Assembly: GCA_023402015.1 (NCBI GenBank)
Contig: JAEXCU010000011.1
Location: forward strand, 5,275 to 69,274
Length of the DNA: 64,000 nucleotides
Reading direction: 5' to 3'
Source of the DNA: Pseudomonadota bacterium
GTDB taxonomy: Bacteria; Pseudomonadota; Alphaproteobacteria; Rs-D84
The notes beneath the pieces were generated by a model. That model was not told the origin of the DNA, did not search any database, and was given only the letters and a program-made list of their open reading frames with translations. Positions 46,350 to 54,160 of this stretch are shown here, in pieces (within the stretch, counting starts at the first letter, position 1; every line of letters begins with the position of its first letter). Position numbers and translations under genes: made by a program.

Positions 46350-46634
46350 ATGAAAACATTGCACCTGGTTTTAAAGGGTATTTGGTACGATAAAATCGCC
46401 GGTGGCGAAAAAACATGCGAATATCGTGAATGCAAAGATTATTGGAATGCACGTTTTATACGCGCAGATGATGCGGCACCCTGCCCTTATAAAATTGTAC
46501 GTTTCCGTCGCGGATATGGCGCAAATGCCCCAACAATGGAATTTGAAATATTAGATATCTTCATTTGCGAAACACCCAATGATTTGGGACTGCCCCGTTG
46601 CTGGGCAATAAAAATGGGAAAACGTTTAAAATGA
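46350..46634 (+). CDS. ASCH-domain protein
   Basis: 94 aa from MKTLHLVLKGIWYDKIAGGEKTCEYRE (ASCH-like beta-barrel signature). Confidence 0.55.
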   Translation: MKTLHLVLKGIWYDKIAGGEKTCEYRECKDYWNARFIRADDAAPCPYKIVRFRRGYGANAPTMEFEILDIFICETPNDLGLPRCWAIKMGKRLK

Positions 46635-46873
46635 ACGAGAAAATAAATCCCCAACTTCTGCATACAACAAATGGCGGCGCAATACGCGTAAAACGCAACC
46701 TGGGCCTGGCGCCGGATACTGATGTCGTAAAATGGTGCCAGAATGTATTGCGCGACAATACAAATTTCACAATTTCCCGGCGCGGGAAAAATTTTTATGT
46801 ACATGACGAAAATTACATAATCACAATTAATGCGCACAGCAATACAATTATTACGGCACATAAAATAAATTAA
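46631..46873 (+). CDS. DUF3781-like small protein
   Basis: 80 aa with an ATGA overlap with the upstream gene. VVKWCQNVL...RRGKNFYVH...ITINAHSNTIITAHKI matches my memory of that family. Confidence 0.5.
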   Translation: MNEKINPQLLHTTNGGAIRVKRNLGLAPDTDVVKWCQNVLRDNTNFTISRRGKNFYVHDENYIITINAHSNTIITAHKIN

Positions 46874-47476: not shown

Positions 47477-47493
47477 TATCAATTAAAACATAA

Positions 47494-47514
47494 AAACACC
47501 GCATCGCGGTGTTT
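47494..47514. terminator. Bidirectional terminator
   Basis: AAACACCGC-ATC-GCGGTGTTT with A and T flanks. Confidence 0.7.
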
Positions 47515-47536
47515 TTATTATTTCACTTTCTTATTA

Positions 47537-47806
47537 TTAATGAATACCCACGCGGAACTGGTCGCCCCAACCGGCAACAACCTGGCCGCCAACGGTGCAT
47601 TGGATATCTTCGAAGCCATTTGCAACCTGGTTCTTTTTTATTACATTACTGGTGATTAAACCGCCCGCAGTTCCCAATACAACACCTGCAACTGAATCGG
47701 ATAATAAACGCGTACTGTTGAATTTACCTTCCTCGGTCTTCCATACCGTGCGTTCAAAATCTGATTTCTGCGTGTTTATTTTCTTTATTGTTTCTTTTAT
47801 GCGATT
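47537..47806. repeat. Left arm of the about 270-bp inverted repeat (3' ends of G1 and G2)
   Basis: The reverse complement matches 50258-50525 at roughly 90% by eye, and most differences are synonymous. Confidence 0.85.
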
Positions 47807-49018
47807 ACGCGAATTCGTTAACAATAACTGGCTGTTGGCAGATTCGCGTTTTTCACGTGCCGCAGACGATTCTATACACGCCGTTCCCGCCGAATTCATT
47901 TCTTTGTCAGGGTCCGTACAATAACATGTTTTGGTCGCATTATTCCATGCCGCACCGTATATCTGGGTGCATGCCGCAATTGCTGGATTAATTTGGCAGA
48001 TTTTATTTAACCAAACATGCTGGGGGTTGGTGCACAGGCAACTTTTGGTCGTTGCATCCCAATACGCACCAGAATTACGACTGGCCGTTTCTTCGCAATC
48101 GCGTTGTAATGCCGCAGCATCCGTTATTTCGCAATGGTCGCCAACGCGTTTGTAATTTACATCATCCGGGCATTGGCAAATATCATTACGCGATACCAGG
48201 TTTTTGGCCGCATCACATTCGCATTTATTGTTTTTCCATGTACCCCCTGATTGTTGACATGCCAATTGACGCTGTTGATTCTGTTTTTGTTGACGCCGGC
48301 GGTCTTCGTCGTCAATAACAGACTGTTTTTTATTGCAACGTTTTGCGCCACTGTCGTATTCATAATCACCGCTGATGCATTCACAAGATTTTCCATCCGC
48401 TTTCGGTTTTAAATGTTTAGCACTGCTGCATACGCAAGAAGAACCATTCCATGTCCCACCAGACGATTCACATTGGCTTTGGCGATTATCCTCAATACAT
48501 TCAGAACTATTCTTTTTATCTTCTGCATTTGGCATATATCCATCATTACATTTTATATACACACACGCTGTATTTCCGGCCTTTAATACCGTATCATCAC
48601 CAGAAACATATCCGATTGTTTTGTTTCCATTATCCAAACTGTATGATTTATAGGAATGGGGAAATGTTGCATCCGGATCTCCTATTTGAATATCACTGTC
48701 AGGACAAAAAATCGGTGGATTAAAATCTTTCCAATAATCATTTTTCCATGTTTCTATACACTGTTTAAGATTTGTGATTCTGCCTTGGGGATCAACCTGT
48801 CCGATAACAGCGCCGCCACCACACTGTTTATCACCAGCATAAGAATCATTACAATAATAACATTGCGAACCATAACCATTCGCGCTGGCATTCACAGAAT
48901 CAGAACCACCGCAACTGAACAATTGACAATTAGCAGCGGCATTTGCCCCAGACATAAATCCAAAAAATCCGCAAAACAATGCTGAAATTACTAAATATTT
49001 TTTCATATTCTTCTCCAT
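47537..49018 (-). CDS. Cys-rich surface protein G1 with repeated C..SGGTW...C.C units and a C-terminal Gly-zipper hydrophobic segment
   Basis: 493 aa with signal MKKYLVISALFCGFFGFMSGANA (ATG 49006 is the likelier start, with GGAG 6 nt upstream). About 40 Cys. The C-terminal 89 aa are nearly identical to G2. Confidence 0.78.
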   Translation of the reverse strand: MEKNMKKYLVISALFCGFFGFMSGANAAANCQLFSCGGSDSVNASANGYGSQCYYCNDSYAGDKQCGGGAVIGQVDPQGRITNLKQCIETWKNDYWKDFNPPIFCPDSDIQIGDPDATFPHSYKSYSLDNGNKTIGYVSGDDTVLKAGNTACVYIKCNDGYMPNAEDKKNSSECIEDNRQSQCESSGGTWNGSSCVCSSAKHLKPKADGKSCECISGDYEYDSGAKRCNKKQSVIDDEDRRRQQKQNQQRQLACQQSGGTWKNNKCECDAAKNLVSRNDICQCPDDVNYKRVGDHCEITDAAALQRDCEETASRNSGAYWDATTKSCLCTNPQHVWLNKICQINPAIAACTQIYGAAWNNATKTCYCTDPDKEMNSAGTACIESSAAREKRESANSQLLLTNSRNRIKETIKKINTQKSDFERTVWKTEEGKFNSTRLLSDSVAGVVLGTAGGLITSNVIKKNQVANGFEDIQCTVGGQVVAGWGDQFRVGIH

Positions 49019-49169
49019 CCCCTGCCTAATGCAAACGTCGGTTTATTTTTGGTGTTTTACACCTAATTATTATAAACATTTTATCATATTTTCTGCGCCT
49101 TTCCAACAATGAATTTTGGCCTAATCCAATGGGACGTTTGTCTTATGCATATCACCAAGGGGTAGGAAT

Positions 49170-50525
49170 ATGAGATTTAAGCCAATTTTTAATATAATCT
49201 GTTTGTCTGTTATGACGTTCACGCCAATCCTGGGCCATGGTGGTACCAACGATGATATAACCAATGCCTGTTATGCCACAAACCATTGTGGCGCGCGCAG
49301 CAACCTAAAAACGTTGGCTGCGGTTCTGGGCGCAACCCAGGGCGCAAAAATTGGATTTTTTACCCCCATATCCGGCGGAACAATTATGGGGGGATACGCA
49401 GGATATGTTATCGGGGATAATTTGGGCGGCAAATTATCCACAGCATATTCGGCCAATGAATACATATATTTTGACGATAAAACATGTCTGGAATGCGACA
49501 CATATCAAATGGGCGAACATTACGAATGCCCCAACGGAACAATTGTTTCAAATGGCAGTCATGTATTAAAATGCCATACAACATCCGGTGGCGATTACTG
49601 GCAAGAATATACATTGTCCCCATGTTCAAACAGTCCGATTAAAAGCAAAGATACCACAGGCACATATGCAGAAATCCGTGCAACGGTGAATAAACCAGTT
49701 GCCAGCGGTGTTAATGTATACAGCGGGGACGCATGCCTGTATATAACAAAGTCCAAGTCCACCTCAAACGACAACAATCCTAAAAAAGAAACACCTGTGA
49801 AACAAAATTCAACCACCAGTTTGCAAAAATGTCTGGACCAGCGCACAACTGACGAAGGCCGGGCGTGCTGTTATGTACCAAATTCGGTCGCAACCTGGAA
49901 TGGAAACAAATGCGTTTGTACCGATAATACCCAGGTTTTTGACATTACTACCCACAGTTGTATAACCGCGTCTGCGGACATCACGGTAATTGTGCAAACG
50001 TCTGCATATGTGTGCAGTGTAAATGATTTAACACAATTGTATATGTGGCGGGATGAATATTTAAATAACAATGCAATTGTTAATCTGATTGATAAAATCC
50101 TGTTATTTTGCACCACGGGCGAAAACCGTACAGGCACAGATTACAATAATATGATTGCGCAACTGCGTGCGTTAATTTCCCAGGAAAACGCAATAGCGCA
50201 AAAACTGCAAGAATCTGCGGCGCAATCACGCATAGTCCTGCAAAATAAATCCGCCATGCGAATCAGTGAAACAATAAAGAAAATAAACACGCAGAAATCA
50301 GATTTTGAACGCACGGTATGGAAGACCGAAGATGGCAAGTTCAATAGTACACGTTTGCTGTCCGATTCTGTTGCGGGTGTTGTATTGGGAACTGCGGGCG
50401 GTTTAATCACCAGTAATGTAATAAAAAAGAACCAGGTTGCGAATGGCTTTGAAGATATCCAATGCACCGTTGGTGGCCAGGTTGTTGCCGGTTGGGGCGA
50501 TCAGTTCCGCGTGGGAATAAATTAA
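49170..50525 (+). CDS. Cys-rich surface protein G2, divergent paralog of G1
   Basis: 451 aa with signal-like MRFKPIFNIICLSVMTFTPILG and a Gly-rich segment. C-terminal RISETIKKINTQKSDFERTVWKTEDGKFNSTRLLSDSVAGVVLGTAGGLITSNVIKKNQVANGFEDIQCTVGGQVVAGWGDQFRVGIN. Confidence 0.78.
   Translation: MRFKPIFNIICLSVMTFTPILGHGGTNDDITNACYATNHCGARSNLKTLAAVLGATQGAKIGFFTPISGGTIMGGYAGYVIGDNLGGKLSTAYSANEYIYFDDKTCLECDTYQMGEHYECPNGTIVSNGSHVLKCHTTSGGDYWQEYTLSPCSNSPIKSKDTTGTYAEIRATVNKPVASGVNVYSGDACLYITKSKSTSNDNNPKKETPVKQNSTTSLQKCLDQRTTDEGRACCYVPNSVATWNGNKCVCTDNTQVFDITTHSCITASADITVIVQTSAYVCSVNDLTQLYMWRDEYLNNNAIVNLIDKILLFCTTGENRTGTDYNNMIAQLRALISQENAIAQKLQESAAQSRIVLQNKSAMRISETIKKINTQKSDFERTVWKTEDGKFNSTRLLSDSVAGVVLGTAGGLITSNVIKKNQVANGFEDIQCTVGGQVVAGWGDQFRVGIN
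50258..50525. repeat. Right arm of the inverted repeat
   Basis: See 47537-47806. Confidence 0.85.
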
Positions 50526-50546
50526 TACATGAATTAACAAAAAAAT

Positions 50547-50568
50547 AAACCGCCAATTTGGGCGGTTT
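50547..50568. terminator. Bidirectional terminator between G2 and dnaA
   Basis: AAACCGCC-AATTT-GGGCGGTTT. Confidence 0.7.
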
Positions 50569-50586
50569 ATTATTAAACTGAATTCT

Positions 50587-53308: not shown

Positions 53309-54160
53309 TTAAGAATCCAAACTCAGCAATCTATCATAATCAATGCTGCTGCATTCTTCTGGTTTACCATCCGGGGCGGTATCCCAAACTTTGCTTTCAC
53401 ATTCCTGTTTCAGAATTTTCAGATTGCGAATAAACTGGTCATATTCACTGCCATTTTCTTTTTTCAGAACCAATAATTGACTGCGCAACAATTCATCACC
53501 TTCCAGGGCCTTTTGTCCCATAACCTTGCCGCCAATTAATCTGTTGCCGAATAATTCCATTGCACCAACACCGACACCTGCGCCACCAACGACACCTGCA
53601 ACCGTGCCCCATGTGCGACCGGATTTTTTTGCATCCAATATGCGCTGTTTTAATTTGCCTTCGTCGGCCCATGCACCACATGTAATATCGCGCCCCATTT
53701 CATAATATTGACTGGGGACATCGGATACACTGACCTTGGCATCATTGGATTTTATTTCCACTTTGACAAAACAAGTATTGTTTTCAGGGTTTTCGGTATC
53801 TTCAACCATTGCAGCATAGTTGTTTGTATTGCTGTATCGCGACGCCCAAACAAATGTATTGCCAACACCAATATTATTATTAATGCACGCAGTGCGTTCT
53901 TTTTCGCGGGTATCAACGGTTGGGATGGTTGCTTCAACCTCTTCTACCCTAACGCTGGATTTATCAGGATTGGTGGATACAGAAATTGACGCCATTGCGC
54001 TGAGTTGATTTGTAGATGCCGTTGCGCGTGGTGCGGCCATAACCGGTCCGTTCACCGCACGACGTGGCGAACCACCCATTTCAGAACGCGCGGCCGCAAA
54101 TGCAGACCCAGAAATTAAGCATATTGCCAAGACTGATACAATTTTTTTCATTCTTCCCAT
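53309..54160 (-). CDS. Secreted/membrane-anchored protein G3, distantly related to G1/G2
   Basis: 283 aa with signal MKKIVSVLAICLISGSAFA. NNTCFVKVEIKS compares with G1 NTACVYIKC and G2 DACLYITKSKS. Gly-zipper segment WGTVAGVVGGAGVGVGAMELFG. Confidence 0.7.
   Translation of the reverse strand: MGRMKKIVSVLAICLISGSAFAAARSEMGGSPRRAVNGPVMAAPRATASTNQLSAMASISVSTNPDKSSVRVEEVEATIPTVDTREKERTACINNNIGVGNTFVWASRYSNTNNYAAMVEDTENPENNTCFVKVEIKSNDAKVSVSDVPSQYYEMGRDITCGAWADEGKLKQRILDAKKSGRTWGTVAGVVGGAGVGVGAMELFGNRLIGGKVMGQKALEGDELLRSQLLVLKKENGSEYDQFIRNLKILKQECESKVWDTAPDGKPEECSSIDYDRLLSLDS

Follow-up and report, generated by a model that had tools for sequence, protein, structure and literature searches.

The analysed window is a 64,000-nucleotide (nt) stretch of contig JAEXCU010000011.1 (positions 5,275–69,274, forward strand) of the alphaproteobacterial assembly GCA_023402015.1 (lineage Rs-D84). 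It contains two adjacent genes, G1 and G2, which encode exported proteins with different ectodomains and an almost identical C-terminal tail. We found that the near-identity of the two tails is the result of concerted evolution that is confined to the tail and has recurred in other species. As judged from sequence comparisons, it is likely that the tails of these exported, cysteine-rich and hypervariable envelope proteins of Candidatus Enterousia are kept near-identical by repeated homologous recombination between the arms of the inverted repeat that their coding sequences form, on top of strong purifying selection.

The source genome is a metagenome-assembled genome (MAG) of 966 kb in 18 contigs, with a GC content of 44% and an estimated completeness of 81%. 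The related loci used for comparison (L numbers) derive from Candidatus Enterousia or uncultured gut Alphaproteobacteria in human, mouse, ruminant and chicken samples. The lineage has been described as one of genome-reduced gut bacteria (PMC12306168).

The gene pair and its inverted repeat

G1 and G2 are arranged head to head (divergently) and separated by 151 bp (Table 1). A repeat search identified a single inverted pair in the region, with arms of 269 nt that are 92% complementary and separated by 2,455 nt. These values agree with a preliminary description of the locus, made from the sequence alone, which had reported a divergent pair sharing an intergenic region of about 150 bp and a near-identical 3′ inverted repeat of about 270 bp. 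In a codon-by-codon comparison counted from the stop codon, all G1/G2 codons upstream of approximately codon -86 differ, so that the repeat has a sharp 5′ edge; 3′ of this point, there are runs of at least 20 identical codons, and the remaining differences are mostly synonymous. A Nei–Gojobori analysis of the 86 codons yielded 16 synonymous and 4 non-synonymous differences (dS 0.346, dN 0.020, omega 0.058). The protein tails differ at three of the last 86 residues (K/S, E/D and H/N) and at four of the last 89. Both the predominance of synonymous differences in the pairwise codon alignment and the figure of roughly four protein differences had been anticipated in the preliminary description. 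The same description called the N-terminal parts unrelated. They are strongly diverged, but this wording was slightly too strong, because BLASTP aligned them with 25% identity over 209 amino acids (aa) (E 2e-4); G1 and G2 are therefore distant paralogues.

The same pair is present in two independent assemblies, L062 (ENA) and L063 (JGI), and an assembly artefact was therefore rejected. L062 is conspecific with the window (97.4% nt identity in dnaA), and L063 is more distant (80%). Each arm also contains a mirror-image antisense open reading frame (ORF), at 47595–47924 on the plus strand (109 aa) and at 50141–50467 on the minus strand (108 aa). Because stop codons interrupt this frame in 21 of 24 related tails, we regard these ORFs as spurious.

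Concerted evolution of the tails

Three genomes (the window, L062 and L063) served to compare orthology with grouping by genome. For the N-terminal parts, the grouping is by orthology. Those of G1 are 93% identical to their counterparts in L062 and 54% identical to those in L063, and the corresponding values for G2 are 98 and 50%, whereas G1 and G2 share approximately 25% identity with each other. Further N-terminal orthologues were found in L143/L145 for G1 (61%) and in L101 (45%) and L146 (40%) for G2. In the tree of the N-terminal parts, the G1 clade and the G2 clade each received 100/100 support.

The tails, in contrast, group by genome. The nucleotide identity between the two tails of one genome is 92.3% in the window, 93.1% in L062, 97.3% in L063 and 98.1% in genome G003, but only 76–79% between orthologous tails of the window and L063. 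In a maximum-likelihood tree of tail DNA, the two tails of a pair are sisters with 99–100 support in L063, L101, L121, L124, L129, L136 and L139, and both tails of L085 are identical. The window and L062 contribute four tails to a single starred clade, which is sister to the L063 pair. In approximately unbiased (AU) tests, a topology following orthology was rejected for the tail DNA (p = 1.5e-6 and 4e-7), and one grouping by genome was rejected for the N-terminal parts (p = 3e-55). With N-terminal parts that sort by orthology, tails that sort by genome and alternatives that are rejected in both directions, the near-identity of the tails represents concerted evolution. The 3′ segments are closer to each other within a genome than they are between orthologues and the rest of the genes follows orthology, which is the pattern known from the bab and hom genes discussed below. 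The incongruent phylogenies and the AU tests thus demonstrate gene conversion, for which the repeat had been proposed as a substrate in the preliminary description.

The length of the repeat varies among the genomes. It is approximately 270 nt in the window, L062, L124, L129, L136 and L139, approximately 300 nt in L063, approximately 450 nt plus 60 nt downstream in L085, approximately 500 nt in L101 and >600 nt in L121. This variation indicates independent events with different end points. The longest repeats bear on another explanation, namely that an entire gene was recently duplicated in inverted orientation and its ectodomain diverged very rapidly, with a tail that has not yet diverged. 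The repeats in L101 and L121, together with N-terminal parts that are 38–41% identical there, fit younger duplications at those loci. However, both ectodomain types predate the split between the window and L063 (orthologues 50–54% identical, paralogues 25%), whereas the tails are younger than this split, and the AU tests already reject this explanation at the window locus, where we regard it as very unlikely.

A second alternative is that purifying selection alone acted on an ancient shared domain, without recombination. Omega in the tail is indeed very low (0.06 within the window pair and 0.12–0.17 between genomes), which shows the purifying selection that had been proposed for the tail in the preliminary description, and 16 tail columns are invariant across the family. 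However, selection on the protein leaves synonymous sites free, and the two tails of one genome are separated by a dS of 0.35 in the window and 0.13 in L063, as opposed to 0.9–1.3 (approximately 1.0) between orthologous tails. The tails also group by genome, and the edge of identity is abrupt. With both the AU tests and the dS comparison already rejecting it, selection without recombination is hardly credible as the sole cause.

The genome encodes RecA, which was first found by a motif search and then matched TIGR02012 of NCBIfam (538 bits versus a cut-off of 325). Sequence motifs for MutS, MutL, RuvB, RecG and RecJ are also present.

A fine-scale mosaic between the window and L062

Site patterns were examined four-way, using the G1 and G2 tails of the window and of the conspecific L062. 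Sites at both ends of the arms are orthologous, codons -43 and -41 are concerted and codons -28 and -25 are swapped. In addition, a patch of 11 substitutions in 46 nt was found in the window G2 tail, but is missing from the window G1 tail and from both L062 tails; all but one of these substitutions are synonymous. Because the substitutions cluster so tightly, we infer that the patch marks a short recombination tract and not serial point mutations, and it looks like an imported or unconverted stretch.

Inversion of the interior

Recombination between the arms would invert positions 47804–50258, and two intact genes would thereby trade places. The sequence geometry indicates that this segment contains both promoters and both N-terminal parts and that both tails are in frame. 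Such an inversion would therefore be functionally silent and would not act as a switch; the inverted product would differ at most at a few arm-specific residues. The segment is flanked by inverted repeats, as invertible segments are, and the arm geometry permits flipping of the 2.4-kb interior. The question therefore arises whether this is a programmed invertible segment that flips often and thereby switches or varies surface proteins, in the manner of a shufflon or a Hin-like system or through RecA-dependent flip-flop with a phenotype.

Several observations are compatible with inversion as such. An inversion followed by re-inversion would be expected to leave a pattern such as the swap of codons -28 and -25 in the comparison of the window with L062. 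In L124 and L136, whose tails form neighbouring clades, reciprocal orthologues are located on opposite sides of parE/orf173 (44% identity over 382 aa, E 3e-99; 60–64%, E 5e-77), which suggests a past swap; a single inversion across the tails would produce such a pattern. Furthermore, almost half of the selected tuf conversions in Salmonella are accompanied by inversion (PMC5485169).

Programming of the inversion is nevertheless unlikely. As both genes, both promoters and nearly identical proteins would be retained, nothing would be switched. No dedicated recombinase was found among the neighbours of the segment (the parE/gyrB-like gene, orf105, orf91, orf173, dnaA and dprA), and the small flanking ORFs (orf173, orf105 and the DUF3781 protein orf91) gave no match to a recombinase family. 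In the consensus assemblies of the window, L062 and L063, the parE side is occupied by the G1 type and the dnaA side by the G2 type, and the order in the L124 species is constant in six samples. The swap between L124 and L136 requires more than one event, because the far flank of L124 also differs (an AMP-binding gene instead of dnaA). It should also be considered that MAG assemblers can mis-orient the interiors of long, near-identical inverted repeats.

The tail module and the protein architecture

The tail module consists of approximately 85 aa and comprises the end of a coiled coil, the motif W-x4-G-x-F-N-x2-R-L, a glycine-zipper hydrophobic helix, the sequence KKNQ and the cysteine-containing motif C-x-GGQ-x-VA-x-WGD-x-F-x-VG. 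An alignment of 35 diverse members contains 16 invariant columns (W38, G43, F45, N46, R49, L50, S52, D53, A56, L60, G61, T62, K73, G80, C86 and D98). The hydrophobic segment, (S/D)SVAGVVLGTAGGLITSNVI, has glycine-zipper spacing, and its A, L, G and T are invariant in the 35 members. In G1, hydropathy peaks are located at residues 7–29 and 438–460. The AlphaFold2 (AF2) model of the G1 ectodomain (residues 60–410; predicted local distance difference test score (pLDDT) of 80–94) consists of small beta-hairpin modules of disulfide type, arranged as a chain, and of two long helices (residues 232–256 and 385–420), the second of which runs into the tail. A Foldseek search of the G1 model against PDB returned nothing significant (best E 0.024, TM below 0.11), and neither G1 and G2 nor the tail profile matched anything in Pfam, NCBIfam or the PDB sequences.

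Three known types of C-terminal or membrane module were considered and rejected. The trimeric autotransporter anchor (YadA_anchor, PF03895) consists of four amphipathic beta-strands with an aromatic end, whereas the last residue of the tail is H, N, Q, R or K; there was no Pfam match at E <= 1, and the hydrophobic segment lacks hydrophobic/polar alternation. C-terminal sorting signals (LPXTG, PEP-CTERM, GlyGly-CTERM and similar) gave no NCBIfam or Pfam match; such signals comprise a motif, a transmembrane helix and a short basic C-terminal tail, whereas approximately 33 conserved residues follow the basic KK cluster of the module. For the Glycine zipper 2TM/SlyB-like family (PF05433), the sole match was below the threshold (E 0.42, 11 bits versus a cut-off of 24.2) and is located at residues 69–88 of G2, outside the tail.

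G2-type proteins have an additional glycine-rich hydrophobic stretch just past the signal peptide, at residues ~45–90 (window positions 49300–49440; LAAVLGATQGAKIGFF..GGTIMGGYAGYVIGDNLGG). It is this stretch that gave the sub-threshold match to the Glycine zipper 2TM family. At the corresponding N-terminal position, partial tail-like matches were obtained in some relatives.

A proposed mechanism

The following sequence of events would account for these findings. Two family members occupy the parE/gyrB–dnaA slot head to head, so that their tails form an inverted repeat, and repeated recombination between the arms, presumably RecA-dependent, would re-copy one tail onto the other. The events would be non-reciprocal gene conversions, probably with occasional inversion, superimposed on the strong purifying selection on the tail protein. 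The tail may have to fit one conserved partner, possibly the product of the nearby gene G3 described below, or itself in oligomers. We infer that the tail serves both proteins as a common module for membrane anchoring or assembly; the preliminary description had proposed a shared anchoring or secretion module.

Some points weigh against this interpretation. The window pair is the least homogenized divergent pair observed (92%), and conversion at this locus is therefore neither very recent nor complete. As the genome is 81% complete, a third copy that served as donor could exist. As for the presumed role of the tail as an anchor, the Kyte–Doolittle mean of its hydrophobic segment (1.52 over 19 residues) is borderline for a transmembrane helix. 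Moreover, AF2 assigned the tail a pLDDT of 59 when modelled alone and below 50 in full-length G1, with no assignable fold. That the tail is poorly modelled yet is the most conserved part of the protein would fit a segment that folds only in the membrane, in an oligomer or on a partner.

With recombination between the arms as the preferred explanation, the locus offers a clean natural case of conversion limited to one domain, in which ectodomains of approximately 25% identity are followed by 86 codons that have been re-synchronized repeatedly, independently in several species. It also singles out the 85-aa tail as the part that stays constant, under functional constraint, in the main family of variable envelope proteins of an uncultured, genome-reduced gut bacterium.

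Distribution of the tail family

The window genome contains two clear copies of the tail, those of G1 and G2, and one very divergent tail. The tail is thus not a common domain scattered over many unlinked genes, the outcome that would have spoken against the preliminary description. The divergent tail (STIGAVTTGLAGGFLV ... IQCYIGGDEAGEYGD) forms the C-terminal end of a 1,040-aa ORF with 38 cysteines on another contig (G000:C4:15083-18202). The hidden Markov model of the tail gave this sequence an E-value of only 0.38; a wider superfamily that includes the module is therefore possible.

Within the genus, 35 of the 36 genomes carry the tail, with one to five copies each in ORFs of approximately 220 to 920 aa, and only weak matches were found beyond it. 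A profile search of 1.84 billion cluster representatives retrieved 950 proteins at E <= 1e-3, and the module is located at the extreme C-terminus in almost all of them. Because 928 of these matches have E <= 1e-10, the family is tight and isolated; it is specific to Ca. Enterousia, and its N-terminal part is very diverse. When metagenome contigs were scanned with the N-terminal part of G1, once as a single sequence and once as an alignment, no relative was found.

Several contigs of related MAGs begin inside a tail (G015:C36:1-105, G015:C48:1-105, G034:C24:1-120 and G025:C51:3-161). Near-identical tails thus probably break assemblies, and pairs are likely to be under-counted. In practical terms, near-identical inverted tails can break or mis-orient MAG assemblies beside dnaA.

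The variable slot beside dnaA

Most members of the tail family are located in a variable slot that is bounded by parE/gyrB and dnaA. All relatives examined share the same gene order: a parE/gyrB-like gene, small ORFs, the tail gene or genes, dnaA, dprA and G3. Most species have one tail gene in the slot, transcribed in the same direction as dnaA; this lone gene is of the G1 type in L143 and L145 and of the G2 type in L146. Among 79 species-representative loci, we identified eight divergent pairs, two tandem pairs and no convergent pair. Tail DNA identity is 93–100% in the seven intact divergent pairs and 83–86% in the two tandem pairs. In the eighth divergent pair (L081), one copy is truncated and the tail identity is 96.5%. 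L062 and L063 are two more divergent-pair assemblies besides these eight.

A small ORF in the interval between parE and G1 (orf91, 46598–46873) encodes a DUF3781 protein (Pfam E 1.2e-22). No family match was obtained for orf105 or for orf173 (the latter in Pfam and NCBIfam), which also lie beside the pair. In L124 (4354–7790), the far side of the divergent pair is occupied by an uncharacterized gene and a gene for an AMP-binding enzyme, and not by dnaA. As the arrangement of the L124 species is identical in six samples, it represents a rearrangement with a break point at the slot.

G3, a candidate partner of the tail

G3 encodes a single-copy, conserved and exported protein and is syntenic with the slot in all of the loci examined. 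In L052 (G036:C4:1-3000) and L053 (G008:C18:8000-13500), natural fusions were found in which an internal tail domain leads straight into a G3-like mature domain (52–55% identical to residues 88–257 of G3); these proteins are 845 and 924 aa long. A G3-like gene also adjoins a tail gene at five loci outside the slot (L021, L027, L032, L039 and L040). The fusions and the neighbourhood of the genes suggest a functional link between the tail and G3. A comparison of the two with hhalign gave no significant homology (probability 1%).

The end of the tail should be extracytoplasmic if G3 is, as the signal peptide of G3 implies. Placing the tail end in the compartment of G3 would speak against a plain inner-membrane anchor whose tail lies in the cytoplasm. 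A tentative and rather doubtful extension of these observations is that Ca. Enterousia has an undescribed system of envelope anchoring or display, composed of the tail and G3, into which hundreds of interchangeable cysteine-rich ectodomains are plugged via the 85-aa tail, with co-resident tails being homogenized by conversion and silent flip-flop inversion to fit a single-copy partner. If such a system exists, the glycine-zipper segment would not be a simple inner-membrane anchor with a cytoplasmic tail. In any case, G3 is a testable partner candidate.

The intergenic control region and flanking hairpins

The 151-bp region between the two genes differs from that of L062 at one position. The core of the promoter-like site predicted for G1 is also kept upstream of the single-copy slot genes in L143, L145 and L146. 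In L063, both copies of the leader motif have changed together (GTCGTTT). Motifs similar to the leader motif also occur elsewhere in the genome. The two copies form a 17-nt inverted repeat, and an invertible promoter was considered and, on present evidence, rejected: the repeat is one leader motif present in both 5′ untranslated regions (UTRs), and the conserved core is oriented identically with respect to the genes in seven of the seven genomes in which it is recognizable. Terminator-like hairpins are located just outside both arms.

Table 1. Coordinates of the features described in the text (window positions)
Feature	Position	Strand	Description
G1	47537-49018	minus	ORF, 493 aa; exported, Cys-rich: signal peptide, ectodomain with 33 Cys, long helix, family tail
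G2	49170-50525	plus	ORF, 451 aa; exported paralogue of G1 with another ectodomain and the same tail
Left arm	47535-47803	minus	Last ~86 codons of G1 and stop codon
Right arm	50259-50527	plus	Last ~86 codons of G2 and stop codon
G1 glycine-zipper segment	47639-47698	minus	DSVAGVVLGTAGGLITSNVI, followed by KKNQ and the Cys-containing C-terminal motif; from hydropathy
G2 glycine-zipper segment	50364-50423	plus	Same segment as in G1
G2-only substitution patch	50330-50375	plus	Codons -65 to -50; from four-way site patterns and alignment
Divergent control region	49019-49169		Common to G1 and G2; predicted promoter-like site and leader motifs
G1 promoter-like site (predicted)	49106-49078	minus	TTGGAA-17-TAAAAT with TG; (TG)ATAAAAT
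Leader motif copies	49023-49039, 49133-49149	both 5′ UTRs	GACGTTTG..TTA.GCA, shortly 5′ of the ribosome-binding site
Bidirectional terminator-like hairpin	47490-47518		Just outside the left arm
Terminator-like hairpin	50544-50571		Between G2 and dnaA, just outside the right arm
G3	53309-54160	minus	Signal peptide, Cys-containing domain, own glycine-zipper segment

Comparison with known systems

The variant-specific surface proteins (VSPs) of Giardia combine a hypervariable, cysteine-rich ectodomain with a C-terminal membrane segment that is highly conserved and with a short tail that is also conserved. Giardia is a eukaryote and controls the expression of these proteins by another mechanism. 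The likeness to G1 and G2 is one of architecture alone; there is no sequence relationship, and a Pfam search of G1 and G2 gave no VSP match.

In Salmonella, the inversely oriented genes tufA and tufB are kept near-identical by gene conversion, often with inversion of the intervening DNA (PMC5485169). They resemble G1 and G2 in being two inverted copies in which conversion maintains near-identity. However, the entire tuf gene is homogenized and the copies are 762 kb apart, whereas in G1 and G2 only the last ~270 nt are affected, the repeats are 2.4 kb apart and the remainder of the genes diverges freely.

Another parallel is provided by the Hop/Hom outer-membrane paralogues of Helicobacter pylori, babA/babB and homA/homB. 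As described in PMC3960876 (citing Pride and Blaser 2002), their variable 5′ and middle segments follow alleles or strains, whereas the conserved membrane-anchoring part is encoded by 3′ segments that have the intra-strain similarity of concerted evolution; the same paper ascribes the homogenization to RecA-dependent intragenomic recombination and gene conversion. The bab and hom genes thus share with G1 and G2 a variable front and a conserved 3′ part that is homogenized within the genome. In H. pylori, however, the genes lie at dispersed loci and their 3′ part codes for a known beta-barrel. G1 and G2, by contrast, have as their tail an undescribed glycine-zipper module of 85 aa and adjoin each other head to head, so that the converted segments form a local inverted repeat. 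The locus therefore exemplifies a known evolutionary mechanism, well supported here, that acts on an undescribed protein module.

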